A model generated the notes under the pieces. That model was given only the letters and a program-made list of their open reading frames with translations, made no database searches and was not told the origin of the DNA. A stretch of DNA of 64,000 nucleotides from an uncultured Pseudomonadota bacterium (GTDB taxonomy: Bacteria > Pseudomonadota > Alphaproteobacteria > Rs-D84), in assembly GCA_937885575.1 (NCBI GenBank), contig CALABO010000014.1, positions 84,726-148,725 on the forward strand, in the 5' to 3' direction. The position numbers and the translations under genes are program-made. Positions 2,593-46,612 of this stretch are shown here, one piece after another (position 1 is the first letter of the stretch; the number at the start of each line of letters is the position of its first letter).

Positions 2593-5283
2593 ATGAAAAA
2601 ATTTACCGTTCTATCATTGTTGTTTATTGTGCCGATTGTTGCGGTGGCAGCGACGGCGAAAAAACAATCGGCAATTCAAAACGGAACAAATGTTCGCGCG
2701 CGTGTTGCGGCGACCGGTGTTTATTCGCAAGAATGCTATGACGAATACTATGGTTGCATGGATCAATTTTGCATATCCGAAAACATAAATGGTGGCAGTT
2801 GTTTATGCAGTAACAATAATGAAAAATACGAATCCGAATTAGAAGAAATAAATGAAATTTTGGCAGAGGCCGACCGAATAAAAACCGTAGAGGTTGAAAG
2901 AATAAAACTGGGGGCCGATGCGGATATTGTCTTTACCGGCGAACGTAAATATGATGCGAACGGAAATGTGATACAATATTCGTCTGTGCAGAAAAAAGAT
3001 ACCACGCCGAAGATAAATAAAAAGCAGGAAGCATTAAAACTGTTTGAAGTCAATTTGTTCGAAGATGACGAAGACGATGATGATGTGATGCATAAAACCG
3101 GTGCCGCGCTGTTTGCCGCCGCCGATGAAACGTGTCGCGCGCAGTTGGGGAATTCGTGTGCCAAAGATATAAAATTGCTTAAACAAATTTATCAGCGTCA
3201 AATTGAATCCGATTGTCGTGGGTTTGCGAACGCAATCGCGCAACAGCGCACGGCGGCGGTCGCCGCGATGAATTCGGCGGAATCCGATGTGCGCAATGCA
3301 CTCAAAGAAAGTTTTGATTCCGCCAATAAATTTAACCAGGGCGAATGCATGGTTGAACTTAAAAAATGTATGTTGGGGGCGGATGCGTGCGGTGATGATT
3401 GGGCGAATTGTGTTTCGATAATTGCAAATGAAAATATGCAAAAGCCGGTTGCGAACCTTACGCCGGTTAAAACCACGATTAAATATAATATTACGCCGTC
3501 TGTTTTGGAACGACTTGAATCGAAACGCACGATTTGTGAACGCGTGTTGGATCAATGTATGGCGGTGCGCGATAATGTTTGGACGGCGTTTCTGCGTGAG
3601 GTTGCACCAAACCTTAAACTTGCGGAATTGCGGGCGGAATCGAATTTTCGGCAATCGTGTTTGACCGAAATTACGAACTGTATTCACACCGCGTGCAAAG
3701 ATGACATCGCGGGCAAGGGGACGGCGACAATGGATTCGTGTTTGTCGCGGCCCGATATGGCGCGGTCTTTTTGCAAAGTGCAACTTGACCCGTGCGAACG
3801 GATGGAACCACTGATTTGGGGATATGTTGTTGATAAACTTGCCGCGATGCGTGTTGACGCGTGTACAGCGGAGGTTAAAGATTGCATTTATTCGCCCGAC
3901 CGGTGTGGGCCGGACTTTATGAACTGTATCGGTATGGATTGGGAATTTGTGCATGGGCTGTGCCCGTTGGATAAATTGGTCGTGTGCAAGAAAAATAATC
4001 CGAACTTTAAAATGGAAGATATTGATTCAATGATAATGGGGCTTTACCTGAATATGGATAACAAGTCATTGGATAACTGTCAAAAATTGGTCGAAGATAA
4101 AATGATGGAAATTTGTGGTTCGACAACCGATTGCAACAAATTTGCAACGGATGATACAATTGGTACCGGGTCGTTGCAATATCAGAAAGATAGTGCAGGT
4201 ATTCATCGGTTGTCTGGGATGATTTCTTTTGGTCAAATCAAGGTTGGTTCGGGTAAAGATGATGCAGGGTTGATTGATATTTCCGATTATGCGTGGTATT
4301 TGTTAGAAAATGGTTATGTGTATGAAACAAATTTACCGTATGCGGATGCGGTTATGTATGAATTGGAAAATATCCAAGGAACCATAAATCGCGTTGTGAC
4401 GATGATTGAACAAGACCAAAAAATTCAATACTGTGTGACTGGACGTGATTTAACACAGATTACTGGGGCGGACAATGCACGAACGACAAAGGCACGTTTT
4501 CCGAATTTGCTGAACCAGGTGAAAATGCAAATTGCGATTGCGGCGTTGCACCAGGCCCAGGATAATTATAATAAAAAATATAATGAATATTTATCCAAAG
4601 CCATGCGTGAGGCATCGGTGGATATGGCAAATTTGATGTGTAATAAATTGCCGGCGGCGGATGGAACAGCCCAAGGAATTTCAGCGACAGATTTAAATGT
4701 TGATTTGATAAAACCGGGGACATTAGTTGTGGAATTTGGTGGTGTTTCGAATGCCGCAATTGCCGCGGGTGGAACGCATTCAACAATGAAGGTTGGTGGC
4801 ACGGCAAGTGTGGAACACAAAAGTGGTAATGCCGCCGGTGGTAATGATGGTGGTGTGGCTGGTACGGTTGGGGCAACACTTGGTACACTTGGGGCAGAGG
4901 CAGGCGCGGCACTTTTGAAATATGCGGCACAAAAGGGGGCAGAGGCGATTGCGGGAAAGAGTGCAGAAGTGGCACAATCTTTGATACAAAGTGCGGCATC
5001 GTTTAATCCGGTGGCTTTGGCGACAACAACGATTGCAGATATGACGGTCAAGGCGATTGGTATATTGGCTTCGGATCATTACAAGGCCGAATTTGATGGT
5101 GGAATACGTGAAATGTGGTCTGTGTTTAATCGTGACACGCGTGTCTGCCATTTATGCACTTCGACAATTACCAAGGATTGCAAGTCAACGTATAAACATG
5201 GTGTCTTTGGCATTGGACGTAGGAATGAAATGGATTGTACGGTGTCTGAACCGATTGAAAAGTGCGATGATATTCAAATGTAG
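2593..5283 (+). CDS. large cysteine-rich secreted protein, paralog family subtype A, copy 2 (896 aa)
   Basis: Signal peptide MKKFTVLSLLFIVPIVAVAA. Signature ECYDEYYGCMDQFCISENINGGSCLCSNN and ICERVLDQCMAVRDNV, colinear with copy 1. Only a 7-nt gap separates it from copy 1. Confidence 0.85.
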   Translation: MKKFTVLSLLFIVPIVAVAATAKKQSAIQNGTNVRARVAATGVYSQECYDEYYGCMDQFCISENINGGSCLCSNNNEKYESELEEINEILAEADRIKTVEVERIKLGADADIVFTGERKYDANGNVIQYSSVQKKDTTPKINKKQEALKLFEVNLFEDDEDDDDVMHKTGAALFAAADETCRAQLGNSCAKDIKLLKQIYQRQIESDCRGFANAIAQQRTAAVAAMNSAESDVRNALKESFDSANKFNQGECMVELKKCMLGADACGDDWANCVSIIANENMQKPVANLTPVKTTIKYNITPSVLERLESKRTICERVLDQCMAVRDNVWTAFLREVAPNLKLAELRAESNFRQSCLTEITNCIHTACKDDIAGKGTATMDSCLSRPDMARSFCKVQLDPCERMEPLIWGYVVDKLAAMRVDACTAEVKDCIYSPDRCGPDFMNCIGMDWEFVHGLCPLDKLVVCKKNNPNFKMEDIDSMIMGLYLNMDNKSLDNCQKLVEDKMMEICGSTTDCNKFATDDTIGTGSLQYQKDSAGIHRLSGMISFGQIKVGSGKDDAGLIDISDYAWYLLENGYVYETNLPYADAVMYELENIQGTINRVVTMIEQDQKIQYCVTGRDLTQITGADNARTTKARFPNLLNQVKMQIAIAALHQAQDNYNKKYNEYLSKAMREASVDMANLMCNKLPAADGTAQGISATDLNVDLIKPGTLVVEFGGVSNAAIAAGGTHSTMKVGGTASVEHKSGNAAGGNDGGVAGTVGATLGTLGAEAGAALLKYAAQKGAEAIAGKSAEVAQSLIQSAASFNPVALATTTIADMTVKAIGILASDHYKAEFDGGIREMWSVFNRDTRVCHLCTSTITKDCKSTYKHGVFGIGRRNEMDCTVSEPIEKCDDIQM

Positions 5284-5297: not shown

Positions 5298-6197
5298 ATG
5301 GAAAATGTAGAAATTGTTGATGGTGTTTTTGGTGATGCGGTAGAAGCGGTTCAATCTGTGCCTGAAAAAGTGCAGGCCAGTGCGGAAGAGTTGAAAACTT
5401 TGATTTCATCGCTGACCGGGATGGCGGTTGATTTTGGTTTGAAATTGCTTGCGGCGCTTGTTGTTTTAATGGGCGGTATGTGGATTGCAAAACGTCTTGC
5501 CCGTGCGTTCAAGCGCACTTTGGAACGTCGTAATGCGGACCCATCGCTTGTTTCGTTTTTGGGTTCGTTTATGAATATACTTTTGCGGATATTTGTAATC
5601 ATTATATCTCTTGCGACCGTAGGGGTTCAAATGACATCGATTGTTGCGGTTTTGGGTGCGGCGTCTTTGGCGGTTGGTATGGCGTTGTCTGGAACTATGC
5701 AGAATTTTGCCGGTGGCATTATCATCATGTTCCTTAAACCGTTCAAGGTTGGCGATATTATTTCGACGGCGGACGGTAAAACCGGAACGGTTAAAAAGAT
5801 TATGATTTTCACAACCGAAATACATACTTTTGATAACCAGGTTGTATTGTTGCCCAATGGGGCGTTGTCCAACAGTCAGATAACAAACCTTTCGGGTAAT
5901 GAAACGCGGCGCGCGGAACTGAACGTTGCTATTTCATATGGCGATAGCGTTGACGCGGCGCGCAAAGAAATTTTGGCGATAATCAAAGCGGACAAGCGTG
6001 TTTTGAAAGACCCGGCACCAAATGTCTTTGTTTCAGATTTGGGCGATAGCGCGGTTATATTGACCGTGCGTTATTGGACGTCGGCGGCCGATATGATTCC
6101 AAGTCGCGGTGATATGTTAGAGGCGATTTATAACAAATTGCCGAAAAAGAAAATACACTTCCCGTTCCCGCAAATGGATGTGCATGTGAAAAAGTGA
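5298..6197 (+). CDS. mscS: small-conductance mechanosensitive channel, MscS family
   Basis: Three N-terminal TM helices followed by the MscS beta-domain pattern FKVGDIISTADGKTGTVKKIMIFTTEIHTFDNQVVLLPNGALSNSQITNLS. RBS AAAGGGAAAG. Confidence 0.85.
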   Translation: MENVEIVDGVFGDAVEAVQSVPEKVQASAEELKTLISSLTGMAVDFGLKLLAALVVLMGGMWIAKRLARAFKRTLERRNADPSLVSFLGSFMNILLRIFVIIISLATVGVQMTSIVAVLGAASLAVGMALSGTMQNFAGGIIIMFLKPFKVGDIISTADGKTGTVKKIMIFTTEIHTFDNQVVLLPNGALSNSQITNLSGNETRRAELNVAISYGDSVDAARKEILAIIKADKRVLKDPAPNVFVSDLGDSAVILTVRYWTSAADMIPSRGDMLEAIYNKLPKKKIHFPFPQMDVHVKK

Positions 6198-6222
6198 TTA
6201 GTGTAAGTGTTAGTGGTTAGTG
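6194..6222. repeat. TAGTG-unit repeat arm (left arm), overlapping the mscS stop codon
   Basis: GTGATTAGTGTAAGTGTTAGTGGTTAGTG is a degenerate tandem run of TTAGTG/TAAGTG/GTTAGTG units. The same arm type occurs at six other loci in the window. Confidence 0.85.
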
Positions 6223-6248
6223 AAACCGGTTGCGATTGCAACCGGTTT
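6223..6248 (+). terminator. hairpin terminator after mscS
   Basis: Perfect 11-bp stem AAACCGGTTGC / GCAACCGGTTT with loop GATT, followed by TTTGAATTTCTT. Confidence 0.6.
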
Positions 6249-6289
6249 GAATTTCTTACTAATCGCGGCTTTACGCCAGTAAAGACGGA

Positions 6290-6366
6290 TGGCGTGCCCA
6301 GCAGGACTCGAACCTGCAACCTATTGCTTAGAAGGCAATTGCTCTATCCAATTGAGCCATGGGCAC
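6290..6366 (-). tRNA. tRNA-Arg (anticodon TCT)
   Basis: Hand fold of the reverse complement: GTGCCCA TG GCTC AATTGGATA GAGC A ATTGC CTTCTAA GCAAT AGGTT GCAGG TTCGAGT CCTGC TGGGCAC G CCA. Anticodon loop CT-TCT-AA. CCA is encoded. Confidence 0.9.
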
Positions 6367-6380
6367 ACAACACGGGATAT

Positions 6381-6408
6381 ATTATAACGCCTTTTTTCCA
6401 AAAAACAA
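6381..6408 (-). promoter_or_regulatory. sigma70-like promoter for tRNA-Arg
   Basis: The minus strand reads TTGTTT-N16-TATAAT. The -10 element ends about 14 nt upstream of the tRNA 5-prime end. Confidence 0.5.
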
Positions 6409-6426
6409 GGGCGCAATTGTGTTCGG

Positions 6427-6456
6427 CCACTAACCACTTACACTACCACCATCCAC
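6427..6456. repeat. TAGTG-unit repeat arm (right arm, inverted)
   Basis: CCACTAACCACTTACACTACCACCATCCAC is the reverse-complement type of the arm at 6194-6222. Confidence 0.8.
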
Positions 6457-6532: not shown

Positions 6533-7006
6533 ATGAAACGGTTGATTCAATTTTGTGTCGCAATGGTAATTTCTTTTTTGCCGGGGATTTTTGGGGTGTT
6601 CTTTACGCCGCACGGTGATTCAGATATATGGTATATGGCGCTTAACAAATCGGGGCTTACTCCGCCAGGCGCGGTGTTTGGTGCCGCGTGGACGATTTTG
6701 TATGCGCTGCTTGGGTTCGCATTGTATTTGATTATCAAAAGTGCGCGCGGGAAATCTGAAAAAGTGATGGCCTATGTTTTATTCGTGGCGCAGATGTTGC
6801 TAAATGCCGGTTGGACATATTTGTTCTTTGGTTTGCATCTGACCGGGTTTGCGCTTGTGGTGTTATTGGGTCTGTTCATTGTTTCGATATGGATGGCGCG
6901 CGTGTTCGATGGAATTGACAGAAAAGCAATGTTGTTGGTTATACCGTATTTGCTGTGGATGATGTTTGCATTCTACCTGAACGCGTATATTGTTTTGATG
7001 AATTAA
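6533..7006 (+). CDS. tspO: TspO/MBR tryptophan-rich sensory protein family
   Basis: Five-TM protein with TspO motifs GAVFGAAWTILYALLG, NAGWTYLFFGLH and PYLLWMMFAFYLN. I chose the start at ATG 6533, behind AAAGGGGA, rather than the track start at 6482. Confidence 0.85.
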   Translation: MKRLIQFCVAMVISFLPGIFGVFFTPHGDSDIWYMALNKSGLTPPGAVFGAAWTILYALLGFALYLIIKSARGKSEKVMAYVLFVAQMLLNAGWTYLFFGLHLTGFALVVLLGLFIVSIWMARVFDGIDRKAMLLVIPYLLWMMFAFYLNAYIVLMN

Positions 7007-7348: not shown

Positions 7349-8272
7349 ATGATATCTAATAATCAAATTTTTGCTGCACCGATGGCGGGGATTTCTGATT
7401 ACCCGTTTCGGCGCATTATACGCGAATTCGCGCCGGACGTGCCAGTGGTGACGGAAATGATTTCTTGCCATTCGTTGATAGAGCAACATAAAAACTGTCC
7501 ACGGAATTTTGATAACTATGGGGCGGAGGGTAATGTAGGAACCCAGATTTTTGGCGCGGTTCCTGATTTAATGGCTGATGCCGCACGGATTCTGGAAGAT
7601 TCTGGGGCAACGTGGATTGATATAAATATGGGATGCCCAGTGCCAAAGGTTGCAACACGTGCGAATGCGGGGGCCTTTTTGATGCGTGACCATAAATTGG
7701 CGGGGCGTATTGTTGCGGCGGTTGCGCGTGCGGTCAAAATTCCGGTGTCGGTTAAAACGCGGCTTGGGTGGGATACGGATAATATGGACTGGGCCGATTT
7801 GGTGCATGTGGCGGCGGATTCGGGCGCGAAATTTTTGACACTGCACGGGCGGACGCGGGCCCAGGGCTATGCCGGTGTGGCTGTGCATCCGAAAATCGAA
7901 AATATGCCGATCCCAATTATTGCAAATGGCGATATTGTGGATGCCGTCGGCGTGCAAGGTGCGATTGACAGCGGCTATGCCGGCGCAATGATTGGGCGTG
8001 CGATGATGGGGCGGCCATGGGTCTTTGGGGAAATTTTGGGAACGGGTAAAAAGCCGGAAAATATTGGGGAACTGGTAATTCGGCATTTGAATTTGGTGTT
8101 GGAATACTATGGTGCGCGCGCCGGGGTGCCGATGTTTAGAAAACACCTTGCGTGGTATTCGGCCGGTATGCCGAATTCAAGTGATTTTCGGGTTAAAATC
8201 AACCAAATAACCGACGAAAAGGAAATGAAACGCGAAATTTTGCAATTTTGGGGTTGCGTTGCGGAAAGATAG
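7349..8272 (+). CDS. dusB: tRNA-dihydrouridine synthase (NifR3/DusB-like)
   Basis: IFAAPMAGISDYPFRRIIREF, DINMGCPVPKV and VSVKTRLGWD are Dus TIM-barrel motifs. The in-frame ATG at 7349 removes a track extension that overlaps ftsB. Confidence 0.8.
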   Translation: MISNNQIFAAPMAGISDYPFRRIIREFAPDVPVVTEMISCHSLIEQHKNCPRNFDNYGAEGNVGTQIFGAVPDLMADAARILEDSGATWIDINMGCPVPKVATRANAGAFLMRDHKLAGRIVAAVARAVKIPVSVKTRLGWDTDNMDWADLVHVAADSGAKFLTLHGRTRAQGYAGVAVHPKIENMPIPIIANGDIVDAVGVQGAIDSGYAGAMIGRAMMGRPWVFGEILGTGKKPENIGELVIRHLNLVLEYYGARAGVPMFRKHLAWYSAGMPNSSDFRVKINQITDEKEMKREILQFWGCVAER

Positions 8273-13291: not shown

Positions 13292-13930
13292 ATTGCAAAG
13301 CATAAATCTTCGGTGGCGTGGTTAACGCGCCAGGCCGCCGACCCCTATGTTGCACGGGCGCGGCGTGATGGTTATCGGGCGCGGGCGGCGTATAAACTGA
13401 TTGAAATAAATGAAAAATATAAATTTTTGAAAAACGGGCAAACGGTTGTGGACTTGGGCGCGGCGCCGGGTTCGTGGTCACAATTTATTGCGCGCAACTA
13501 TCCAAAGACAAAAATCTTTGCGATGGATTTATTGGAAATAACGCCAATCAACAATGTTGAATTTTATCAGGGTGATTTTACAACGGATGCGGCGCTAAAA
13601 TGGTTAGAAGAAAAACTAAAATTGGATGACAATGCAAATGGGGTTGTTGATGTTGTTGTGTCAGATATGGCACCGAATACCGTTGGACATCAAAAGACCG
13701 ATCACCTGCGTCAAATGGTGTTGTTGGAATATGCGTTCGATTTTGCGTGTCGTGCGTTGCGGCCCGGGGGAACATTTGTTGCAAAATCTTTTACGGGCGG
13801 AACAACGAATGAGTTATTGAAGCAAATAAAACAGAAATTCGAATCGGTTCATCATGTGAAACCGGCCGCATCGCGCAAGGATTCGGTCGAAATGTTTATT
13901 GTTGGACTTGGGTTCAAAAATAATGTATAA
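13271..13930 (+). CDS. rlmE: 23S rRNA (uridine2552-2'-O)-methyltransferase RlmE/FtsJ
   Basis: WLTRQAADPYVARARRDGYRARAAYKL, VVDLGAAPGSWSQ (SAM-binding motif), VVSDMAPNTVGH and VKPAASRKDSVEMFIV. I chose the start at the internal ATG 13271. Confidence 0.92.
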   Translation: MKITNKKIAKHKSSVAWLTRQAADPYVARARRDGYRARAAYKLIEINEKYKFLKNGQTVVDLGAAPGSWSQFIARNYPKTKIFAMDLLEITPINNVEFYQGDFTTDAALKWLEEKLKLDDNANGVVDVVVSDMAPNTVGHQKTDHLRQMVLLEYAFDFACRALRPGGTFVAKSFTGGTTNELLKQIKQKFESVHHVKPAASRKDSVEMFIVGLGFKNNV

Positions 13931-13956
13931 TGTGTCATATGAAAAAAGGAGAGAAT

Positions 13957-14469
13957 ATGCCAGTTGCAAAAAAGAAAACAACAACCGCAAAGAAATCTGT
14001 GAAACGTGCGCCGGCGCGTCGCGCGCCCGTGCGTGAGGTTCCGGTTCAAACACCGCGTCGCCGTATGGTTGGGCCGCTTTCCGCGATTGTCGGGTTTTGG
14101 CGGCGGTATTTTGATTTCGTTGGGCGTTCAACGCGCGCGGAATTTTGGTTTGGATATTTGTTTGCGTTCTTGGTGAATTGGTGCTTTGCGTATTTTGTTG
14201 GCGGAACAATTTCTTTGGTGGTTAGTGCGATTTTGTTCATCCCGGTGATGGCGCTTTCGGTTCGCCGTTTCCGTGACGCGGGGATTTCGGTTTGGCTGTA
14301 TCTGGTGCCGGTGCTGTTTGTGTATTTGATACCGGTGATTCGCGGTTCGGCATGGTATTCAATGATGGCGTTCGGATATGTGTCGTCTGGTATGGCGTTG
14401 TATGCGTTGTTCTTTATTGTCGATACCATATTCAATTTTGTTGTCGCATGCCTACCAAGCAAGAGATAA
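13957..14469 (+). CDS. DUF805 family inner-membrane protein
   Basis: GRSTRAEFWFGYLFAFLV and LSVRRFRDAGISVWLY match the DUF805 (YhaH/YhaI-like) pattern. Basic N-terminal tail. I chose the ATG at 13957 behind AAAGGAGAG. Confidence 0.7.
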   Translation: MPVAKKKTTTAKKSVKRAPARRAPVREVPVQTPRRRMVGPLSAIVGFWRRYFDFVGRSTRAEFWFGYLFAFLVNWCFAYFVGGTISLVVSAILFIPVMALSVRRFRDAGISVWLYLVPVLFVYLIPVIRGSAWYSMMAFGYVSSGMALYALFFIVDTIFNFVVACLPSKR

Positions 14470-14560
14470 GTTTAGTGGTTAGTGTAAGTGGTTAGTGTTA
14501 GTGAACCGGCGCGTTGCGCCGGTTTCATTATTTGTTTTATTTGTTTACACTACCCACTAC
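14467..14560. repeat. TAGTG-unit inverted-repeat element between convergent genes
   Basis: Left arm TAAGTTTAGTGGTTAGTGTAAGTGGTTAGTGTTAGTG (14467-14503), a central hairpin, then right arm CACTACCCACTAC (14548-14560). The arms contain the stop codons of both flanking genes. Confidence 0.8.
14504..14524. terminator. hairpin terminator shared by convergent genes
   Basis: Stem AACCGGCGC / GCGCCGGTT with loop GTT, followed by a T-rich tract to about 14546. Confidence 0.6.
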
Positions 14561-15246
14561 TTCGGGAAATGGATTGAACGCTGGGTTGCGGCGGATGTTT
14601 GCATCGCACCGAAACGCGCATTGATTACAAACGGTGTGATAAAGTTATTTATGTCTGGATTATACTGTGCGCCATTAAGGACGATGATTACAGGATTTTC
14701 CCCATCGCAATCGATACTGTATTTTGATGGATCGTATCTTTTTCCATAGCAATTACCGCTTAATGTCGCGACATAGTTCATATCGGCCAGTTCGCGGCAT
14801 GTTGGCGCGGGCCCGATTTCCCCGTTGGCAACCGTTTCTGTTGGGTTGGATAAAATTCCGTTGCACCAAACGCGCACATATTCGCCGTTCATCATAACCA
14901 GTGCGCCGTTTTGAGATGTCTTGCGCGCGCCATAGCAATCTTCGGCGGCGACATAAACGCCGGTATCAAAATCAGAATTTATTCCGTTGCCACTGATAAT
15001 TTTGTCACGGTTCATCGCAATTGGCTCAGATGCATTACCACTAAGTGCCGCCGCACATATAAACTTTCGGCCACGGCAATTGCCAGTTTCGTCCCATTCG
15101 TCATCCACGCCACGTGTATTTTTTGCATAGCACATCGCGTCACTGATGGTGCAAATTGTCGGTCGTAACCACCAATCAAGTGTTGCACCGAACGCGGTTC
15201 CGCACGCGGTACATCCAACGAATAAAATTGCAAATTGTTTTTTCAT
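14557..15246 (-). CDS. small cysteine-rich secreted protein or possible lipoprotein (229 aa)
   Basis: Internal start MKKQFAILFVGCTACGTAFG (signal peptide, possible lipobox FVGC) behind GGAAAGGAAA. Cys residues recur throughout. It lies 50 nt downstream of the 745-aa Cys-rich gene on the same strand. Confidence 0.7.
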   Translation of the reverse strand: MKKQFAILFVGCTACGTAFGATLDWWLRPTICTISDAMCYAKNTRGVDDEWDETGNCRGRKFICAAALSGNASEPIAMNRDKIISGNGINSDFDTGVYVAAEDCYGARKTSQNGALVMMNGEYVRVWCNGILSNPTETVANGEIGPAPTCRELADMNYVATLSGNCYGKRYDPSKYSIDCDGENPVIIVLNGAQYNPDINNFITPFVINARFGAMQTSAATQRSIHFPK

Positions 15247-15296
15247 TTTTCCTTTCCCCCGTATTATATCAGTTTTTTGTGTGTCGTGCAAGTTAT

Positions 15297-17534
15297 CTAT
15301 GGGGTGCGACAAATGCCCCATTTTTCATTTGCGTTTGTTTCGTTATAGAAATCGATGTACTTTGGCGCGGATGTATCGTTTGTCCATGTGCCGCCCATAT
15401 CGGTGCATTCGCGTGCAAGTATCGTTGCCATGTCGGCACGCACCGAATCCATAAGCGTATTTACATCGGCCAAGACCGATATCGGCAAAACCGCGTTTGG
15501 TTGTGCTGCGTCAGATGGACGCATGCAATACTGCATCGCATAGTTCACCATTTTCTGATACAAACTGCCCGCGTAGTCGCCACAATCAATGCCAACCTTG
15601 TGCGGGCCGTTGTCGTCGCATTCCCATCCATCCTCGGTCGGGCACGCAAAGCATTTGTGTTTGCCATCGGTCCATGTCCCAAGGTAAAATCCATGTTTGC
15701 ATGATTGATATTCGCGATTTTCCCAACACATGTATTCCGATTGTGGGTTGCCGACAATATTATTTATTAAACTATTGGCTGGTTGCACCAGGGTTCCGGT
15801 GTATGTTCCGGGTTGGACATAATTGCAGTCGGGATTGTTCGCATAGGCAATATCGCCGGGGGTATAGACGCGGCAACCGTATGGATATTCGTGTGTGGTA
15901 TCACTTGTTGGGACGCGACACAATTTTTTTGCATAGTCGCGCAGAGTGCCAAGGCAATTTTGTGCGATTTTCTGATTCACAATGTTGCGCATTTCCGTGA
16001 CCAATCGATCAAGGCCGTTCGGGCCACCACCGTAAAGGTTGCTGCACGTTTCCATTTTTTCCGAACATTGCTCTTCGGACAGTTCAAGGCGCGTGCCAAG
16101 CAACATTTGCTCTTCGATATTACTGTAATCGCGCAGGCGTTCCGTTTTCGTGTCATAGCATGTGTTCACGACATCCATACATTCGTTTTTAACCTGTTGA
16201 ATTCGTAACTGTTGCCCTTGGTATATTTCGGTTATCGCCTGGCGCAGGTATTCGTCCCAAACCGTGTCCGCAATGTCGCGACATGTTTCAAGTGTGTGTT
16301 CGGCGAATTTCCTTTTTGCGTTTAATTCGGTGACGAGTTTTGCGTTTATGCTGTTGGTTAAAATGTTGCCCGACAGTGAAATCTGGTCATTCAATTTATA
16401 GAAATTTTTTGAATATATCGGGTTGCCGGTTGCGCGTTCAATGTAAAGGCCGGTCAGATCCAAACAGTGAATATAGTTCGCCCCGCATGCCGTGTCCGCG
16501 GTTATGTTCGCACGCACGCCGGCGATACATTCATTTATTGCGGTTGAATTGTGCGCGTCATAGTTTTCAAGTCGCGCCGCGTTCATTTCCCGATTCGTTT
16601 CACGGATTGCGGCGTTTGCACTTATCGATTGTTTTTCAAGCGCGGTTAGTAATATCGAACAATCGTTTTCAATATACATTCCATATGCCGATGCAACCAT
16701 ATTTAGCGTTGTCATTGATGTGCAAGTTGGCATAACAAGTTCGGCGCACTGGGCATGCACGGCGTTATATAACGGTTCGCCCGTAAGGTTTGCGATGTTC
16801 GCGCCAGATACAATATCGGTCGTGTTCCATATTTGCCCAATGTCGCCGGCAATATCCAAAGTTCCCGCGGTCGATAGTGAATTTGTCTTTGCCTTTTTTA
16901 ATACATCGCCGATGGCGGTCAGTTTTTTTGACGATGCGGAATTGTCGCGTGTGCCGGCAAGTTTTTTTTCGCCTTCACTTGCGGTCAGCATGGCCTTGAC
17001 CTCCGCCGGGGTTTTAAGGATTGCGTCAATGTTCAAATCTTTGAAATCTTGCAATTGTGTTGATGTTTGGCTAAGTGCGTTTTCGCGCGTTTTAACTGTG
17101 TCCAGTTTTGATGAGCATATACAGCGACGATAGTGGTCGTCAATTGTTGCGCAAAACTGATCCATGCACGAAAAATACGCCGCATAGCAATTGTGATATT
17201 TTTCATCAAATGTATTTGTTGAAATTGTTTGCGCGGTTGTCGCGCGTACGGTTGCCGCGCGGTTCGGTGTCGTGCGCGTGGTTGTGCGGCCCATCGCCGC
17301 CGTTATCGCACCACGCGGGTTTGCGGCGACGCGGCCCGCACGTGCCACACGCGCAACCCCGGTTCGTGCGTTTGCCGTGCGGGTATTTGTTGTGGTGCGT
17401 GCGGCAACATTTTGACCGTCGCGGTTCGTTTCGGTTGGTGTTGCGCGCGTTGGTGAATTTTGGGTGCGAACCGCCGCCAACGCCGACATGGCGCATAACG
17501 CGCATATTGCAAAAGAAAGTATTTTTCCTTTCAT
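15297..17534 (-). CDS. large cysteine-rich secreted protein, paralog family subtype B, copy 1 (745 aa)
   Basis: Signal peptide MKGKILSFAICALCAMSALA, then a Thr/Arg/Ala/Asn-rich spacer. Family signature NCYAAYFSCMDQFCATIDDHYRRCICSS and ETCRDIADTVWDEYLRQA. Confidence 0.85.
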   Translation of the reverse strand: MKGKILSFAICALCAMSALAAVRTQNSPTRATPTETNRDGQNVAARTTTNTRTANARTGVARVARAGRVAANPRGAITAAMGRTTTRTTPNRAATVRATTAQTISTNTFDEKYHNCYAAYFSCMDQFCATIDDHYRRCICSSKLDTVKTRENALSQTSTQLQDFKDLNIDAILKTPAEVKAMLTASEGEKKLAGTRDNSASSKKLTAIGDVLKKAKTNSLSTAGTLDIAGDIGQIWNTTDIVSGANIANLTGEPLYNAVHAQCAELVMPTCTSMTTLNMVASAYGMYIENDCSILLTALEKQSISANAAIRETNREMNAARLENYDAHNSTAINECIAGVRANITADTACGANYIHCLDLTGLYIERATGNPIYSKNFYKLNDQISLSGNILTNSINAKLVTELNAKRKFAEHTLETCRDIADTVWDEYLRQAITEIYQGQQLRIQQVKNECMDVVNTCYDTKTERLRDYSNIEEQMLLGTRLELSEEQCSEKMETCSNLYGGGPNGLDRLVTEMRNIVNQKIAQNCLGTLRDYAKKLCRVPTSDTTHEYPYGCRVYTPGDIAYANNPDCNYVQPGTYTGTLVQPANSLINNIVGNPQSEYMCWENREYQSCKHGFYLGTWTDGKHKCFACPTEDGWECDDNGPHKVGIDCGDYAGSLYQKMVNYAMQYCMRPSDAAQPNAVLPISVLADVNTLMDSVRADMATILARECTDMGGTWTNDTSAPKYIDFYNETNANEKWGICRTP

Positions 17535-26714: not shown

Positions 26715-29531
26715 TTACTTTCCCCAAAATGGTGCGATTACATAGTCGGCGCGAAGTGGCACGGATATTTTCGTAACATTTTCCATAATGTTTTTGATTT
26801 TTTTGGCAAATTTTTCGGCAAGTTTTTCGTCGCATTCAAAGACCATTTCGTCGTGAACCTGCATAATAAGTTTTATTTTGTCGTTATTCGGAACAACAAT
26901 TTTGTTATAAACATCCACCATTGCGCGACGCATTAAATCGGCCTCGTACCCCTGAATGGGGGCGTTGATTGCGGCACGCATTGCGTATGCGCGCAGACGG
27001 GAATTTCGGACCTCTGGTAATTCTATTCTGCGGCCCCATGGGGTATAAACGCATGCGTTTTCGCGCGCGAATTCCTTGGTATCGTCAATATATTTTTTTA
27101 TTTCCGGTAATCCCGCCATGTATGAATTTATTATTTCCGCCGCGCGCGCCCGCGAAACATTTAATTGGGCCGCAAGGCCGATTGATGAAATTCCGTATAT
27201 GATGGAAAAGTTCACGGTTTTGGCCGCACGGCGCAAATCGCGCGGCACAATCGTGGTTGGCGGAATATTAAAGATTTTTCGCGCGGTTTGTTCGTGAATG
27301 TCCGCGCCCGCGATAAATGTATCCTTGAATGTTTTAATGTCTGCAACATCCGCCAGCAGGCGAAGTTGAATTTGTGAATAATCGACCGCAATAAGTTTAT
27401 TCCCTGGCGCGGCGACAAAACACTTCCGGATTTCTTCGCCAAGTTCGGTTTTAACCGGAATGTTTTGCAGGTTCGGGTCGCGACTTGAAAGGCGGCCGGT
27501 ATTCGTACTCGTTTGCATATAGGTTGTGTGAATGCGCCCGTCGTCACCGATTTGGCGGGGCAGGGCGTCCGCATATGTTCCCGCAAGTTTCGCAATTGAA
27601 CGCCAATTCAAAATCTTTTCTATAATTTCATGGTGTTCGATTAAATCGTTTAGTGAATCCGCATCGGTGGAACGCCGTTTGTTTTCGGGCAAATGCAATT
27701 CATCAAACAGAACGGTTGCAAGTTGCTTTGGACTTGCGATATTAAATTCGTGTCCGGCAAGGTCGAAGATTTCGTTGCTGATTTTCGTAAGTTGTTCATG
27801 AAACACACCCGAAAGTTGTAATAATTTATTTTTGTTCACCAACACGCCGGCGCGTTCCATCATTGTCAAAACCATTAGCAACGGTCGGTCACATTTTTCA
27901 TACAATTTATGAAGTTTTTCGTTCGCATCGATTTGCGGCCGCATAAGTTTATATAGTGCCATTGTGACGGCGGCATCTTCGGCGGCGTACGGATACGCGG
28001 TATCGATTGGCAATTCATCAAAGTGCATATCCGCGTCGCGTGTCTTGGGCGGAAACAGTGACGCAAAAGTTATATTTTGATGATTCAGGTATTTTAACGC
28101 CAATTCGTCCATGCCGTGCGAATGCAATGTTCCGTGCAGCGCATACGATAACAACATTGTATCATCAATCGGTGAAATTTTTTCAATGTCCCACCCTTCG
28201 TTCGCCATGATGTGCAGGTCGAATTTTAGGTTGTGGCCAACCTTGGTAATTTTTTTATCCGTCAAAATTGGCCAGATTTTTTTATACAAATCTTTGATTG
28301 AAATCTGTCCCGGGGCAATAGGGTCACCACCAAATAAATCGCCCGCCGCCGCGCGATGACGCAATGGAATATAAACGCCGTGTGATGGGTCAATGGCAAG
28401 TGACATACCGACCATTTTTGCGGTCATTTGGTCCAGGCCGGTTGTTTCGGTATCAAGTGCGATAACATCACGGACACCCGACAAAAATTTTTCCAATTCC
28501 GCAACGGTCGTTATTTTTGCAAAGGTCATTGCGGGTTCGGTTCCCCTCTGGCTAGAGGGGTGCCCGCAGGGCGGGGTGTCGCAGAAAAACGATGAAGTAT
28601 TTTTGTTGTTGGGTGCGGGCGCATCGACGGGGCAGGCGGAATTTGGAAATTCGAACTTTGTTGGTGTGGTAGCGCGCTCCGGAAACAATTTTGAAATTTT
28701 TTCATACAGTGAATTGCTTTCGATTTCTTTTTGAACAAATTCCAATGCGGCGGCGCGGTTGAAGTGCAATGGCCCAAGTTTTAATCCCGACAAATCGACA
28801 TCGCGTTTAAGTGTGACGAGTTTTCTTGATATGTATGCCGCATCGCGTGATTCGGTAAGGATTTTTCGTGTGCGTTCATTTTTTATGTCGCCTAAATGCG
28901 CGTAAAGTTCGTCAAGCGTTCCGAATTCGTTGATAAGTTCCGCCGCTTTTTTCGGGCCAATTCCGTGAACACCCGGAACATTGTCAGACGAATCGCCCAT
29001 CAGTGATTGAACATCGACGACACGTTCGGGTGGCACACCAAATTTTTCAATGACTTCGGCGCGTTCTATGCGCTTTTGTTTCATACCGTCGTAAAGGAAA
29101 ATACAATCAGACACCAGTTGCATTAAATCTTTGTCGCCGGTCATAATGCGCGTTTTGTCGGCGACAGCACAATTTTTTGTTGCAAGTGTCGCGATAACAT
29201 CGTCGGCCTCTACGCCGGGGACGCAAAGAACCGGCACGCCCATATCGGCAAGGCCGCGACGAATCAATGCGCCCTGGGAAATTAAATCGGCGGGCGTCTC
29301 AAGGCGGTTAGCCTTGTATTCCGGGTATATTTCTTGACGGAAAGTTTGGCGCGACGCGTCAAACACGCATACAAAAATGTCGTCAGGTTTGGCGGCGGCA
29401 AACACCGGCAACATCATATTGAAAAAGGCAAATGCCGCGCCGGTTGGTGTGCCGTCGTTTCGCGTAAGGCGGCTGTGCACACCATAATATGCGCGAAATA
29501 AAATCGAATTTCCGTCAATCAGTGTCAGCAT
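26715..29531 (-). CDS. polA: DNA polymerase I
   Basis: 5'-nuclease domain (LIDGNSILFRAYY, GVPGIGPKKA), 3'-5' exonuclease domain (ALDTETTGLD) and polymerase motifs (RRAAKTVNFSIIYG, QVHDEMVFE). Start MLTLIDG at 29531 behind GGGGGAAAT. Confidence 0.97.
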   Translation of the reverse strand: MLTLIDGNSILFRAYYGVHSRLTRNDGTPTGAAFAFFNMMLPVFAAAKPDDIFVCVFDASRQTFRQEIYPEYKANRLETPADLISQGALIRRGLADMGVPVLCVPGVEADDVIATLATKNCAVADKTRIMTGDKDLMQLVSDCIFLYDGMKQKRIERAEVIEKFGVPPERVVDVQSLMGDSSDNVPGVHGIGPKKAAELINEFGTLDELYAHLGDIKNERTRKILTESRDAAYISRKLVTLKRDVDLSGLKLGPLHFNRAAALEFVQKEIESNSLYEKISKLFPERATTPTKFEFPNSACPVDAPAPNNKNTSSFFCDTPPCGHPSSQRGTEPAMTFAKITTVAELEKFLSGVRDVIALDTETTGLDQMTAKMVGMSLAIDPSHGVYIPLRHRAAAGDLFGGDPIAPGQISIKDLYKKIWPILTDKKITKVGHNLKFDLHIMANEGWDIEKISPIDDTMLLSYALHGTLHSHGMDELALKYLNHQNITFASLFPPKTRDADMHFDELPIDTAYPYAAEDAAVTMALYKLMRPQIDANEKLHKLYEKCDRPLLMVLTMMERAGVLVNKNKLLQLSGVFHEQLTKISNEIFDLAGHEFNIASPKQLATVLFDELHLPENKRRSTDADSLNDLIEHHEIIEKILNWRSIAKLAGTYADALPRQIGDDGRIHTTYMQTSTNTGRLSSRDPNLQNIPVKTELGEEIRKCFVAAPGNKLIAVDYSQIQLRLLADVADIKTFKDTFIAGADIHEQTARKIFNIPPTTIVPRDLRRAAKTVNFSIIYGISSIGLAAQLNVSRARAAEIINSYMAGLPEIKKYIDDTKEFARENACVYTPWGRRIELPEVRNSRLRAYAMRAAINAPIQGYEADLMRRAMVDVYNKIVVPNNDKIKLIMQVHDEMVFECDEKLAEKFAKKIKNIMENVTKISVPLRADYVIAPFWGK
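28535..28575. repeat. GC-rich palindromic repeat copy embedded in-frame in the polA inter-domain linker
   Basis: GTTCGGTtCCCCTCTGGCTAGAGGGG plus CCCGCAGGGCGGG. The first part closely matches the intergenic copy GTTCGGTcggaCCCCTCTGGCCAGAGGGG at 52144-52172. Confidence 0.65.
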
Positions 29532-29579
29532 ATTTCCCCCGTTATTATAAATGCGGGGCACGCGGCCCCGCTTTGATTA

Positions 29580-37550: not shown

Positions 37551-38414
37551 ATGAAAAAAATTTCTGTGGCTTTGTGCGCGGCGGCTATGCCTTTTGCGGT
37601 GTTCGCGTCGGATGTTGATTTAGAAGGTAAAGAACTGATTTTGAACATTCGGCGAATCGGACTTGATTTGTCCAAGACCACGGTTCGGCATTCTGATGAA
37701 TATTATAATTCGCCGATTTCCGCACTAAGTGCCGATAGCCAAGAATTTATCAAGGGTGTGTTTGATACGGCGTTGGAATATACACATGGACGTTTGAATT
37801 GGGACAACAGTTTGTTTATGGAATACGGGCGGACGGAATTGCAACCGTATAATGAACCCAAAACCGTGAACGAAAGTGCGGATAAAATTTTATTGTCTTC
37901 TAATTTGAATTATGCGTGTTGGGATTTTGATTCGTTCAAACTTGGGCCAATGGCGCGGGCGGCGTATGAAACGGAATTTGTCCCGGCGAATGATACGGAC
38001 AATCGGTTAAAGGTTTTGCGTTCTATGGCGGGTTTTGCGGTGTTCGATTCGCCGATAATCAAAGATTTGCATATTGCGGGCGTGTATGAATATGACTTTA
38101 CATATGGGCATAGGCAAGTCAGCAAACTTGCCGCGGAAATTGGTTGGCGACTTGAATACGAATTGCGCGAAGGTGTGAAATTTGCGACCGATGGATATTA
38201 TCGTGAATACCTTGATTATTCGCAATATGTCGGAACGGATTTGGAACGCGATTTAAGTGTCGTTGCGCGTATGGATACGAACCTTTGGGGTGATTTCACA
38301 TTGGGACCATATTTGCAATACCGCCGTGCCAAGGCGCGCGATGCTGAAAGTTATGGCAGCAATTTTATCATCGGCCTGTCGTTTAATTATATAACCAAGT
38401 TTGGGTTGTATTAG
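37551..38414 (+). CDS. outer-membrane beta-barrel protein of unknown family (287 aa)
   Basis: Signal peptide MKKISVALCAAAMPFAVFA. Alternating strand pattern. C-terminal LSFNYITKFGLY. Confidence 0.65.
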   Translation: MKKISVALCAAAMPFAVFASDVDLEGKELILNIRRIGLDLSKTTVRHSDEYYNSPISALSADSQEFIKGVFDTALEYTHGRLNWDNSLFMEYGRTELQPYNEPKTVNESADKILLSSNLNYACWDFDSFKLGPMARAAYETEFVPANDTDNRLKVLRSMAGFAVFDSPIIKDLHIAGVYEYDFTYGHRQVSKLAAEIGWRLEYELREGVKFATDGYYREYLDYSQYVGTDLERDLSVVARMDTNLWGDFTLGPYLQYRRAKARDAESYGSNFIIGLSFNYITKFGLY

Positions 38415-38495
38415 TGGAAAGTGTAAGCGAAACCGGCGCATTATTGCGCCGGTTTTTTGTTAAATAATACCACTTTCCACTATTTCACCACGCTA
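38411..38495. repeat. TAGTG-unit inverted-repeat element between convergent genes
   Basis: Left arm TTAGTGGAAAGTGTAAG, a central terminator hairpin, then right arm CCACTTTCCACTATTTCACCACGCTA. The arms contain the stop codons of both flanking genes. Confidence 0.75.
38430..38458. terminator. bidirectional hairpin terminator
   Basis: 11-bp stem AAACCGGCGCA / TGCGCCGGTTT with loop TTAT, followed by a T-run. Confidence 0.7.
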
Positions 38496-40825: not shown

Positions 40826-43800
40826 TTGATACGGTGAATTTGTCCCCATCGCCAACGGCGCGAATGGCCGAATTATACATCGCCGCCGCGGTTATGGGCG
40901 GAACCGTAAATTCGCCGGCGACCGATAGTTGCGCGCGATATGAAAACACCAGTGGTGTGCGACCAATGTTCGCGTATACCAGCACGCGGTCTTCGCGAAT
41001 TTCACTGAAATCCATATCGCCCGTAAGCGAGTCGGTTATCGGTGCAAATCCGCCCGGTAATAAATCCGATATCACCGCGTTCTGGACATAGTCCGTGTCG
41101 CCACGCGCACGCACCGATATTTTTACATCGACAATATCACCGATTTTTCCAGAATGAATTTCGTTGCCGTCCGCGTCATAGTATTTGCGTGTGACTTCCA
41201 ATCCGTGGGATGTGTTTGACACGGATTTCGGAAAACCTTGTTGCAACATTGTATAGAAAAGCGGTTCTTTACAATTCTTGCAACCGATATTCAATTTTGT
41301 TAAATCGCGTGGCAAGTTTGCATATACTGCGCCCGATTCAAATTGCGGTTTAACCTGTTTTCCGTCGGCAAGTATGGATATACTATCGACATCGCCAAGG
41401 GTCAGGTTTTCGCTTGCGCCGGATTCGGACATAACAATCGCCGCCGCGACAAAAGAATCATAATTCCCGGCGTTTATGTATTCCGCGATACTTTGTTCCA
41501 AATCGTTCTTTGCCGTATCAAAATAACGCCGCATGATAAATGTATAATTTGCATCGTTTGCCACAACGTTATCGAATATGTTATCAATGTGCTTTGGTGA
41601 CGGCTTATTTGGTTGATATTTTGAAATCAGATTAAACGCCTTGTCCGTTTGTTTAAGCATTTTGTAAGACGCGGCAATATATGCACCGATTGGACCGGTT
41701 TCCCAATCCTTTATCATTTCGTTTGTGTATTCTTCGAGTGAGTCAATATAACTTGTCGTCACATAATCGTTTAACGAAAGGACGTATATTGCGAACGCCT
41801 TGGCAAATGCGTCGGTCTTGGTCGTTGTGTTTTGCGCCGCGTATTCGCGCAGGAAATCAATCCCGCGTGCAAACATCGATTGGGGCACAGTAAAACCACC
41901 TTGGCGTGCAAGGGTTAAAAAGTTCATAACATACGCGGTGACATATGGTGTTGTGTCACTTTTCAAACTTTCAATATAATCGGAACCGTTGGCCCATAGT
42001 GTAAATGAACCATCATTATTTTGCCGATTGCCAAGGGTTTGAATTGTTTTCGCAATCTTTTCGGCAGAATCTTTGTATTCGGTGCCAAGCAATTTATTTT
42101 CCGGCATCAAAACGTATGGCAATGTTTTGGACACCATTTGTTCCGTGCATGTGTAATCGTAATTTTTAAGATACATAAACAGCGGACGAACAAGGACAGA
42201 CGGCGAACGGGAAATGTAAATTGTTCGCGCGAATTTTTCATCGTACATATCGTTTTCAAAATGCCGCAGTGTGGTGTTTGTGTCTTTTAATATTCCTGTT
42301 TTTATATCCGTTAAAAATGTTGTTGCGGGTCTTATTGATAAACTGCTTGAAGTGCGGCGCGATGCGATGGCGGTATTTTTGTCATCAAACAATGTTGTTG
42401 AAACATTTATGTCGCCGGTTCCAAGCGTGCCATTTGCCGTCACATCAAACGCCCAAAGTTTTTCCGTATTTTCTGGAACAGTCATAGTATTAGAATCATT
42501 TGCAATGGTTACCAATTTGTTTGCAGATATTGCGTCCGTGCGTGCGGTTGCATTTTCGCCGGATTCCGGGGTCAGGTTTGATATAATTGTGTTCACGGTG
42601 AATTTATCGTTTGGCGCAACAAATAACGGCGCGGATACCGATATAATAACCGGTGATTGAACGGTTGTAGATGTGTGTGCGGAACCAATTGCACCGTCTG
42701 ATGCCGCGACGGCATAAACACTGATTGAACCGTTAAAGTATTCTGGAATTTCGAAACTTATATTTTTCTTTTCGTTTGCGGTTGTTTTCAATATGCCCGA
42801 ATAAAATGCGATAGACGGCAAGTTCTTGCGTGCGAACGGATTGACCAGGGCCGATTTTTCGTTTGCGAAATCCGCAAGTACATCATCACTGCCGCCGGTT
42901 TTGGCGACTTCGCGTAAAATGTTATATTCGGGCAGCAACAATGATAATATTTGTGTGGTTTCCACTTGAAGTGCGGCCTTTTGAAAGAAGTGTTTGATTG
43001 GGTTCGGTAATTCATATCCCGCAACTTGCAAAATTCCAGTGTTTACCGCAAAAATCATCAAGTCAGAATCTTTGTTGGTTGAATATTCAATGTCTAATTT
43101 GCTGTCGCGAATAACGGGTTCAGTGTTTAATTCGACTTTTATTTTATGTTTGTCGATATTCGTTGAAAACGGTGCAACCCCATAGGTGTAAGGACTGGTA
43201 AAGACATCGCGGCTGTTGATGTTGCGGACAAAGGAAACATTGACATAACCCGTGCCTTCGAAATTGTCGGGCAGGGTGATTTTCTGGGTCGATGCGGTGG
43301 TGGTCGCATTAAACCACGTGTGCGCATAAACTTTGTCACGTTCGATTGTGATGAGGCCGGTTCCGGTATATGGTGCAACGATACCGATGTTTATCGTTTC
43401 GCCGGGTTTGTATTCATCTTTATCAAGTTTGATTTGCAATTCGGCATTTGCATCACCACCAAGTTCCGCATCTTCATCTGATGCAACAAAGTATTCAATG
43501 TTTGCCAAAATATTTTCATCGGTGTCCGTTATCTGAACATAATATGTTCCGCCATTTTTCGTGTTTAATTCAATTTCGGTTCCACTTTCAGGTATCGTCA
43601 ATTGTGTCACAGAAATGACAGTGTCGCGTGCAACGGTTTTATATTTGTAATTGTTCGAATAATCTTTGATAAGTGTTGTTAAATTTTCGCGTTTGACCAA
43701 CTTTATATTAAGGTTTTCGGCGTTTGTTGCCTTTGCATTGTTGTCCAGTGCAATAAGTTTGATTTTGTGTTCTGAATTGCGTGCAACATAGGATAAATCG

Positions 43801-46544: not shown

Positions 46545-46612
46545 CGATTTTTCCCCAATCCTAATAGTTCACAACTACATATTAGAATATAAATATCAAA
46601 ACACAAGTAAAA

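Follow-up and report, generated by a model that had tools for sequence, protein, structure and literature searches.

Intergenic arrays of TWAGTG units in the window

The window analysed here is a stretch of 64,000 nucleotides (contig CALABO010000014.1, positions 84,726 to 148,725; assembly GCA_937885575.1) from an uncultured alphaproteobacterium of the order Rs-D84, and its intergenic regions carry a family of inverted-repeat elements whose arms are arrays of short T(T/A)AGTG (hereafter TWAGTG) units. There are 11 such arrays, with a period of 6 or 7 and almost free of C, at six intergenic loci, which corresponds to roughly one array per 6 kb. A first-pass annotation made from the sequence alone had described the family and spoken of seven loci; all of its arrays were found where it had placed them, and the coordinates that it gave make six loci. 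Every array in the window is intergenic or overlaps merely a stop codon.

At the first locus a sense arm of four to five units (GTGATTAGTGTAAGTGTTAGTGGTTAGTG, 6194-6222, plus strand) includes the TGA stop of mscS (6195-6197) and is followed by an intrinsic terminator hairpin recovered by a terminator scan (AAACCGGTTGCGATTGCAACCGGTTT, 6223-6248). Next comes a tRNA-Arg(TCT) gene on the minus strand (6290-6366) with its promoter at approximately 6375-6410, and the partner arm (CACTAACCACTTACACTACCACCATCCACTT, 6427-6456, minus strand) lies upstream of that promoter, with no gene reading into it. The tRNA gene, its promoter and the terminator sit between the two arms, as the first-pass annotation had it. 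The second locus begins at the TAA stop (14467-14469) of a DUF805 gene (13930-14469) with a sense arm of five units (14467-14503, plus strand), which is followed by a terminator hairpin (GAACCGGCGCGTTGCGCCGGTTT, 14503-14525) and by a short partner arm of two units (14548-14560, minus strand) that overlaps the TAG stop (14557-14559) of a minus-strand gene (14557-15321). The terminator scan ranks the hairpins at 6223-6248 and 14503-14525 above every other terminator-like site of the window's first 20 kb. At the third locus, a short sense arm (TTAGTGGAAAGTGTAAG, 38411-38427, plus strand) includes the TAG stop (38412-38414) of the gene at 37551-38414, the core is a terminator hairpin (AAACCGGCGCATTATTGCGCCGGTTTTTT, 38430-38458), and pbpC (38480-40855, minus strand) has its TAG stop (38480-38482) within the partner arm (38470-38495, minus strand). 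Just two to three units make up each of the arms at 14548-14560 and 38411-38427.

The fourth element lies upstream of rpsB. It stands between the divergent promoters of a gene for a 1910-aa protein (minus strand) and of rpsB (plus strand). Its left arm occupies 46613-46639 on the plus strand, its core is G-rich and has no terminator (GGGGGGCCGTGGAACGGGGCAGGGTATGTTT, 46640-46670), and its right arm occupies 46671-46700 on the minus strand. The fifth locus holds an unpaired sense array that begins at the TAG stop of tsf (48673-48675) and runs on the plus strand (TAGTGTAAGTGTTAGT, 48673-48688) up to a small hairpin module of 33 nt (CCCGCTTTCGCTGTCGCTACAGCGAGGCAGGGG, 48689-48721), of which a similar copy exists in locus L007; the array then resumes with a final TTAGTG unit (48722-48727), which is followed by the tsf terminator hairpin GCGCGGGGCAAAAGCCCCGCGTTTTT (unit and hairpin together 48722-48753, plus strand). 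The earlier description of 48670-48727 as an array in a single orientation holds insofar as there is no partner arm, and is to be supplemented by the module that splits the array. At the sixth locus a sense arm (52103-52128, plus strand) includes the TGA stop (52105-52107) of an M23 peptidase gene, a mosaic core (52129-52220) combines a CCCC..GGTCGG hairpin with a CCCCTCT..AGAGGGGAACTTTG module and a TCTGGAA..TTCCAGA..CTACTAAC module, and the partner arm of six units (52221-52263, minus strand) terminates in CACTTTTT.

The five paired loci share one polarity, 5'-(TWAGTG)n-core-(CACTWA)n-3'. The stop codon of a gene reading in sense is overlapped by seven of the 11 arms, namely at the ends of mscS, the DUF805 gene, the two genes that stop at 14557 (minus) and 38412, pbpC, tsf and the M23 peptidase gene. 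The four arms without a facing gene are the right arm at tRNA-Arg, both arms upstream of rpsB, and the right arm before an S41 peptidase gene. Roughly half of the terminators in the window are array-free (for example after 24395, after 53728 and at 7050), and since these serve as gene ends the arms are not required for a gene end. By rough gene calls, the stop codons in the window comprise 27 TAA, 14 TAG and 6 TGA; four of the TAG stops come from arrays, and TGA stops are unusually rare for an alphaproteobacterium of 46% G+C.

That this is a true family of intergenic inverted-repeat elements, as the first-pass annotation had proposed, is supported by several scans of the window. The two-unit pattern TTAGTGNTAAGTG, with one mismatch allowed, has 6 matches versus 0.14 expected from shuffled sequences, segments with at least four AGTG per 30 nt are confined to the array loci, and an independent repeat finder returned the arrays as the top real direct and inverted repeat families (D2, D5, D6, I1, I2, I5 and I6). 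The most frequent 14-mers of the window are CACTAACCACTTAC and AGTGTAAGTGGTTA, with four copies each, or approximately one per 16 kb.

These counts bear on the suggestion, also raised in the first-pass annotation, that the arrays are motifs that mark self DNA for natural transformation, as do the inverted DNA uptake sequences and uptake signal sequences (DUS and USS) of Neisseria and Haemophilus. Like the DUS and USS of Neisseriaceae and Pasteurellaceae, the arrays are numerous and specific to a clade, and they form inward-facing inverted pairs around terminators at gene ends. DUS and USS have an invariant core of 9-12 nt and occur roughly once per kb, genes included; as fixed 10-12-mers they themselves make up the stem of the terminator, and they are also found within genes. 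In contrast, TWAGTG arrays are degenerate, with units and spacing that vary and no fixed 9-12-mer, they flank a separate hairpin, their top 14-mer occurs just four times in 64 kb, none of them lies within a gene, and their orientation is locked to gene ends. We consider an uptake function exceedingly improbable.

Unit composition, polarity and gene ends

Statistics were collected for a sample of 189 arrays from the window and the sampled loci (designated by L and a number). The arrays consist chiefly of GTTAGTG (189 units), TAAGTG (132), TTAGTG (96) and ATTAGTG (50), with other xTAGTG forms as a minority; 258 periods of 6 and 329 of 7 were counted, and C makes up 1.2% of array bases. Tandem Repeats Finder (TRF) and chain analysis give 3-11 units of period 6/7, and these unit statistics bear out the earlier view of the arms as micro-tandem arrays of 6-7 bp units. 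Periods 6 and 7 tend to alternate, TAAGTG being followed by a 7-nt unit 102 times and by a 6-nt unit 14 times. TAG or TAA is present in ~93% of units, and the most frequent higher-order core, TAGTG-TAAGTG-GTTAGTG (TAGTGTAAGTGGTTAG), has a stop in each of the three frames.

Among neighbouring pairs at most 500 bp apart, 36 face inward and 1 outward, with a spacer of typically 23-120 bp. In sense, 41% of the 189 arrays are entered by an open frame of 100 codons or more, compared with 7% in the antisense control, and the genes that read in stop at TAG (57), TAA (15) or TGA (6), most often at the first unit's TAG. Genes read into both arms in 15 of the 57 pairs, into one arm in 26 and into neither in 15, one pair being unscorable on one arm; for single arms, a gene reads into 37 of 76. 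Approximately half of the arms are single, and these are typically placed between a stop codon and a terminator. The near-absolute inward polarity, the link to stop codons, the clade-wide range described below and the large share of unpaired arms all go beyond the first-pass account.

One way to interpret these statistics is to see in the arrays a cis-acting signal dedicated to punctuation, acting as a multi-frame ribosome trap and/or as a site for a lineage-specific RNA- or DNA-binding factor, which would uncouple translation from transcription before the terminator and thereby insulate neighbours in a compact genome. We regard this as possible, if on the unlikely side. It would account for the high proportion of sense arms that abut or supply a stop (41% versus 7% in the control), for the retention of TAG or TAA in 93% of units, for the three-frame stops of the commonest core and for the preference for a 7-nt unit after TAAGTG (102 versus 14), and it is favoured by the 34 terminators that begin at offset 0 on the inner flank of an array and by the retention of arrays at ~77% nucleotide identity in genomes smaller than 1 Mb (see below). 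However, three-frame stop coverage, which is 77% compared with a null of 61% in the sample but owes that bias to the search pattern, is not above null in arrays that were not selected by the pattern (49% versus 43%, p=0.12). Many arms have no gene reading into them, arrays are missing from roughly half of the window's terminators, the element is dispensed with at two loci in close relatives, and the family is limited to one subclade. A more elaborate proposal is that (UWAGUG)n is a purpose-built gene-ending signal that would be read by the ribosome and release factor 1 (RF1), perhaps together with a lineage-specific protein, so that ribosomes are stripped off before a bidirectional terminator and the inverted copy turns the element into a portable two-way insulator; this we consider unlikely. 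In the more general form in which the first-pass annotation had listed it, a role of the elements as transcription/translation insulators would be plausible, and the protein-binding array listed beside it would be a further candidate role. The occurrence of promoter-like -10 hexamers within arrays was also considered, and a promoter scan flags no array.

Cores, terminators and folding

The cores are variable and may be a terminator, CCCC..GGGG hairpin modules or a tRNA gene, in agreement with the first-pass annotation. An intrinsic terminator of ordinary, bidirectional type is a frequent component. Their length ranges from 23 to more than 200 nt and their contents (terminators, the tRNA gene, assorted modules) are unrelated. 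The inner flank of an array is more structured than the outer flank (-10.1 versus -6.5 kcal/mol, p=4e-7), and 49 of 169 arrays have a strict terminator on this inner side, which in the 34 cases mentioned above begins at offset 0. It is the core, and not the arms, that provides the G+C-rich hairpin followed by a U tract. The antisense arm was considered as a Rho-loading (rut) site; it is G-free, yet its pyrimidine-C dinucleotides number only about one per unit, which is weak support, and the idea was dropped.

Folded as a whole, the elements give long hairpins, with z-scores of -5 to -10.6. Complementarity between arms is 0.476 within elements and 0.498 between elements (permutation p=0.95). 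Because arms are no better matched within than between elements, we interpret their pairing as a by-product of shared units in which any register is tolerated, and this argues against a structure tuned at each locus. The lack of co-variation between arms is still compatible with a function of the stem, since any (TWAGTG)n pairs with any (CACTWA)n. Co-evolution of the arms at 38411 and 38470, which share a GGAAAGTG unit, was discarded as an anecdote given the permutation result.

Several modules recur among the cores. A near-perfect palindrome, GTTAGTAG-TCTGGAAT..GTAATTAC..ATTCCAGA-CTACTAAC, is present in 12 copies in several species, and a second module, CCCCGGCC..GGCCACCCCTCT..AGAGGGGAACTT, which often adjoins the palindrome, in 13 copies, also in several species. 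Arrays are also interrupted at TTAG/TAG sites by a third module, a small hairpin (48689-48721 in the window, and L007, L120 and L022), whose TAG/TTAG flanks suggest a second tiny mobile module aimed at TTAG-like sites. By analogy, such layered cores resemble bacterial interspersed mosaic elements (BIMEs). Hairpin modules such as CCCGCTTTCGCTGTCGCTACAGCGAGGCAGGGG were seen within or beside arrays (L007 at ~6790-6830, L120) and once in a terminator loop (L022).

A CCCCGCCC..GGGCACCCCTCTAGCCAGAGGGGAAC module was also observed in frame within polA (open reading frame 26715-29561; module at 28530-28590 of the window, minus strand), where it reads CDTPPCGHPSSQRGTEP. The module lies in the linker that joins the 5'-nuclease part of DNA polymerase I to its Klenow part, and it resembles the in-frame insertions of Rickettsia palindromic elements (RPEs).

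Gain, loss and persistence at orthologous sites

The elements are gained, lost and rewritten between relatives, and are persistent at some sites. At the mscS-tRNA-Arg-tspO locus both arms are kept in L053 and L100 (MscS 93% identical at the amino acid level) and in L107 (83%, with ~77% nucleotide identity), and the orthologues differ in unit number, unit order and terminator. In L029 the tRNA gene is inverted relative to mscS; inversion of the tRNA core by recombination between the arms was considered here and rejected, as synteny breaks and there is no right arm. At the orthologues of window positions 6250-6290 in L100 (~4880-5010) and L003 (~7370-7500), ~150 nt of extra DNA adjoins tRNA-Arg and opens with a duplicated tRNA 3' end (tggtgtgcccagcagga), with no second tRNA detected there by ARAGORN; from its sequence, this DNA looks like the scar of an element integrated at the tRNA.

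The rpsB-upstream element is found in the window and L117 only. The site is empty in L022 and in L118-L125, and the empty sites carry at least 11 nt that are absent from the filled site, with no clean target duplication. From this comparison the element is a gain in the lineage of the window and L117. In place of the element at 52103-52263, L022 has ~860 bp with an unrelated open reading frame, and the M23 gene there ends at its own TAA. The relatives that lack these two elements have genomes ~88% identical to the window, and a target duplication recurring across elements was not found. Downstream of tsf, a single sense array is present between the stop and the terminator in every close relative, and sister lineages have either a degenerate array or none; the proto-array of L125, TAGTTGTTAGTTGTTATTGGTTAGT, is an example of the former.

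The loci L122 and L124 have 96-98% identity and flanks that are 100% identical, and five substitutions and two indels all fall within the array, which on sequence comparison is more like a templated rewrite than point mutation. Such a localised burst of change was seen only in this pair. A proposal that arrays are hypervariable, based on the window and L117, was abandoned, as these genomes are merely ~88% identical overall and the difference is unremarkable.

Extra open reading frames (117 and 223 aa, respectively) without Pfam matches were observed in L007 (6443-6796) and L022 (4843-5514), inserted exactly at array-bracketed sites that correspond to 38415-38479 and 52108-52318 and are simple in the window. 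Judging by these positions, new DNA seems to land preferentially within array brackets.

The presence/absence polymorphism raises the question of mobility. In one explanation the elements are classical non-autonomous transposons, i.e. MITEs (transposable elements of the miniature inverted-repeat type), or REPINs (pairs of repetitive extragenic palindromes, REPs) that are mobilised in trans by a transposase or a REP-associated tyrosine transposase (RAYT) encoded elsewhere in the genome. Their inverted terminal arrays qualify as terminal inverted repeats, they differ in presence between ~88% identical genomes, GTAAAAA stands on either side of the window element (46609-46698), and in a longer palindromic form (12 copies) a central hairpin, TCTGGAAT..GTAATTAC..ATTCCAGA, is conserved between the flanks GTTAGTAG and CTACTAAC. 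On the other hand, the empty sites have an 11-nt stretch replaced in place of a clean target-site duplication, the interior is not conserved and its length is not uniform among copies, and half of the arms are single. A phmmer search with the E. coli RayT protein against open reading frames of at least 70 aa from the window and 196 loci (~1.4 Mb) gave one hit, to a spurious shadow frame (E=0.0096). Of the MITE-like role that had been suggested in the first-pass annotation, the gains and losses are retained, whereas no target-site duplication, conserved interior or transposase was found in the sequence sampled, and we find this explanation quite doubtful, indeed improbable.

Distribution across genomes

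In order to determine how widely the arrays occur, we scanned one genome per species for exact matches to TAGTGTAAGTG(N0-1)TTAGTG, and at least 116 stretches matched. Among the matches listed, 93 belong to at least 45 species-level assemblies labelled as Candidatus Enterousia, Alphaproteobacteria or uncultured proteobacterium, from rumen or gut, and the remaining ones are single occurrences at chance level in unrelated taxa. One matching assembly, JBKSMR, is an Enterousia metagenome-assembled genome (MAG) of 0.87 Mb; genomes of the order Rs-D84 are described as smaller than 1 Mb (PMC12306168). This search of related genomes, of the kind that the first-pass annotation had advocated, showed that the arrays are present in high copy number, in a fixed orientation and with presence/absence polymorphism.

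In a set of 80 metagenomic rpsB loci, only relatives with an RpsB identity of at least 91% have arrays, which identifies the family as specific to a subclade; this subclade spans roughly 77-89% nucleotide identity to the window. Arrays were not found in 71 more distant rpsB loci, one of which, L194, has an unrelated 8-mer array. An Rfam scan of the whole window returned nothing but the two tRNAs at the gathering threshold, a search of literature full text for the array sequences gave matches only to unrelated primers, and the repeats are unmentioned in Enterousia papers. The repeat family is real and apparently undescribed.

Other short-unit arrays were noticed in the sampled loci. In the distant relative L194 (RpsB 81% identical, 52% G+C; positions 628-1115), inverted 8-nt arrays, (AGTGACAG)n ... 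(CTGTCACT)n, bracket a small gene with the same polarity as the window elements; the gene belongs to the 23S rRNA-intervening-sequence protein family (PF05635, E=5e-12). A link between the TWAGTG arrays and elements of this protein family was considered and rejected, as no homologue is present in any array-bearing locus. In L001 (1920-2290), from a Flavobacteriales MAG of an unrelated phylum, long and pure 6-nt arrays, (CACTTA/CACTAA)x12 and (GTTTGA)n(GTGTAA/GTGTTA)x7, are inverted and adjoin a tRNA gene, in an orientation opposite to that of the Enterousia elements, with the antisense array first. Between the conserved rpsB leader and the start codon, the distant lineages L192 (237-317), L194 (3455-3477) and L140 (616-645) have arrays of other heptamers (ATTTCTG x3, AAATCGT x3, CTAGTCC x3 and CGAATCA x4), which recall the TAACTGA repeats that were reported upstream of ribosomal-protein genes (MacGregor 2015).

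Among published repeats, those closest to stop-bearing intergenic tandem arrays of 6-7 nt units are the direct repeats of the heptamer TAACTGA in marine Beggiatoaceae, cyanobacteria and Bacteroidetes, which form homogeneous sets, mostly just upstream of start codons, with one inverted case reported (MacGregor 2015, PMC4679880); long simple-sequence repeats in general were treated by Mrazek 2007, as cited in that article. Both kinds of repeat consist of intergenic tandem stop-bearing units of 6-7 nt that are unable to extend into genes in forward orientation, number many sets in a genome, are distributed patchily across the phylogeny and have no mechanism on record. The TWAGTG arrays differ in that they mix GTTAGTG, TAAGTG, TTAGTG and ATTAGTG units in recurring order and stand downstream of stop codons, in inward-facing inverted pairs around terminators.

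This similarity underlies a further explanation, according to which the arrays are ordinary long simple-sequence repeats grown in situ by replication slippage, with no element identity and no function, and the inverted partner would arise by template switching at the terminator hairpin. The micro-tandem structure and the unit number that varies between orthologues would be expected from slippage, degenerate proto-arrays such as that of L125 exist in sister lineages, comparable inverted hexamer and octamer arrays occur in unrelated bacteria (L001, L194), and there are parallels in the heptamer repeats of Burkholderia and cyanobacteria and in TAACTGA of Beggiatoaceae, heptamers being the commonest class of long simple-sequence repeats (PMC4679880). 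However, pure slippage is expected to give homogeneous units, so that the recurrence of the same mixed-unit core, TAGTG-TAAGTG-GTTAGTG, at many unlinked loci in at least 45 species counts against it. The rpsB-upstream site acquired both arms and the core together, and arms are no more alike within than between elements, contrary to recent template switching. We judge it unlikely that slippage alone produced the arrays.

A proposed REP/BIME-like family with differently built arms

The family is clade-wide, strictly intergenic, polar and mosaic, with stop-bearing micro-tandem arms. Taken together, we favour the reading that it is a lineage-specific family of dispersed extragenic palindromic repeats, REP/BIME-like with differently built arms, in Alphaproteobacteria of the Candidatus Enterousia type, for which we see an even chance of being correct. 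REP, BIME and REPIN sequences are extragenic repeats of Enterobacteria and Pseudomonas with RAYT transposases (Y1/HUH), whose genes are usually flanked by REPs. The TWAGTG elements resemble them in being short, abundant and strictly extragenic, often after gene ends and between convergent genes, in forming inverted pairs that are able to fold into a long hairpin and mosaics with other short motifs, and in being lineage-specific and able to persist at orthologous sites. In terms of structure they differ: a REP unit is an imperfect palindrome with a GTAG head, whereas the arms in the window are direct TWAGTG arrays that are not individually palindromic, and GTAG occurs only in minority GGTAGTG units. 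The terminator stem is a separate structure enclosed by the paired arms and not formed by them, single arms make up half of the total, and a RAYT was not detected in the sequence sampled (the window and the 196 loci).

The first-pass annotation had also set the elements apart from classical REP, enterobacterial repetitive intergenic consensus (ERIC), RPE and Correia elements, and their anatomy is indeed unlike these. Correia elements of Neisseria (also called NEMIS) can act as terminators and are substrates of RNase III when transcribed. Like these and other MITEs, the TWAGTG elements are small intergenic inverted-repeat elements with presence/absence polymorphism, but they have none of the conserved body of ~100-150 bp, the 26-bp terminal inverted repeats and the TA target duplication of Correia elements. 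They share with RPEs a dispersed palindromic family in a reduced alphaproteobacterial genome, and an associated core module (CCCC..CCCCTCT..AGAGGGG) is in frame within polA, as RPEs are in genes. RPEs, however, are units of 100-150 bp that insert in frame into genes, while TWAGTG arrays are strictly intergenic and untranslatable in sense. By this comparison, the family appears to behave as a new variant of the REP/BIME-type intergenic repeat and not as a new kind of system.

Under the REP/BIME-like reading, the UAG or UAA of ~93% of units would keep any frame from running far into a sense arm; as the stop-rich units block every reading frame, genes would end at the first unit, and in compact genomes the array itself may become the gene end. 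The sense arm would then supply back-up stops and an unstructured, C-free spacer of 20-40 nt before the terminator hairpin. The two arms could pair in any register, in read-through RNA or in single-stranded DNA, to give a stem of 20-30 bp that could strengthen termination or insulation for either direction. The copies would most likely spread and become homogenised through slippage combined with recombination or gene conversion among them, possibly seeded on microhomology such as AAGT...ACTT, with no dedicated transposase.

Several observations weigh against this reading. Reduced genomes usually shed selfish repeats, and the hosts here have reduced genomes of less than 1 Mb (PMC12306168). Neither a transposase nor a RAYT nor a target duplication was found in the window and the sampled loci. 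Unconstrained intergenic DNA would be expected to be randomised at ~77% nucleotide identity, so that the retention of both arrays at the mscS-tRNA-Arg-tspO locus of L107 counts against elements free of constraint. The 15 of 57 pairs without a gene reading into either arm mean that 'gene end' describes only part of the family. Finally, the stop codon of the units is conserved, T being kept in 91% of TAAGTG-type units compared with 84% at the equivalent position of xTAGTG, and this retention, together with the three-frame cover achieved by the commonest core within 16 nt, hints at selection on function.

Implications for compact genomes

An abundant, clade-wide mosaic repeat persists in the <1 Mb genomes of these uncultured gut Alphaproteobacteria, where dispersed intergenic repeats usually vanish, and its arms fix the point at which many genes stop. 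The family is a ready marker for the clade, and annotators should be aware that the stop codons and 3' ends of array-linked genes are set by a repeat. The elements also offer a natural system in which to test whether stop arrays in several frames and stems that pair in any register aid termination or insulation in compact genomes; if the arrays should turn out to be functionless, they would be a clear case of a palindromic repeat that spreads without a visible transposase.

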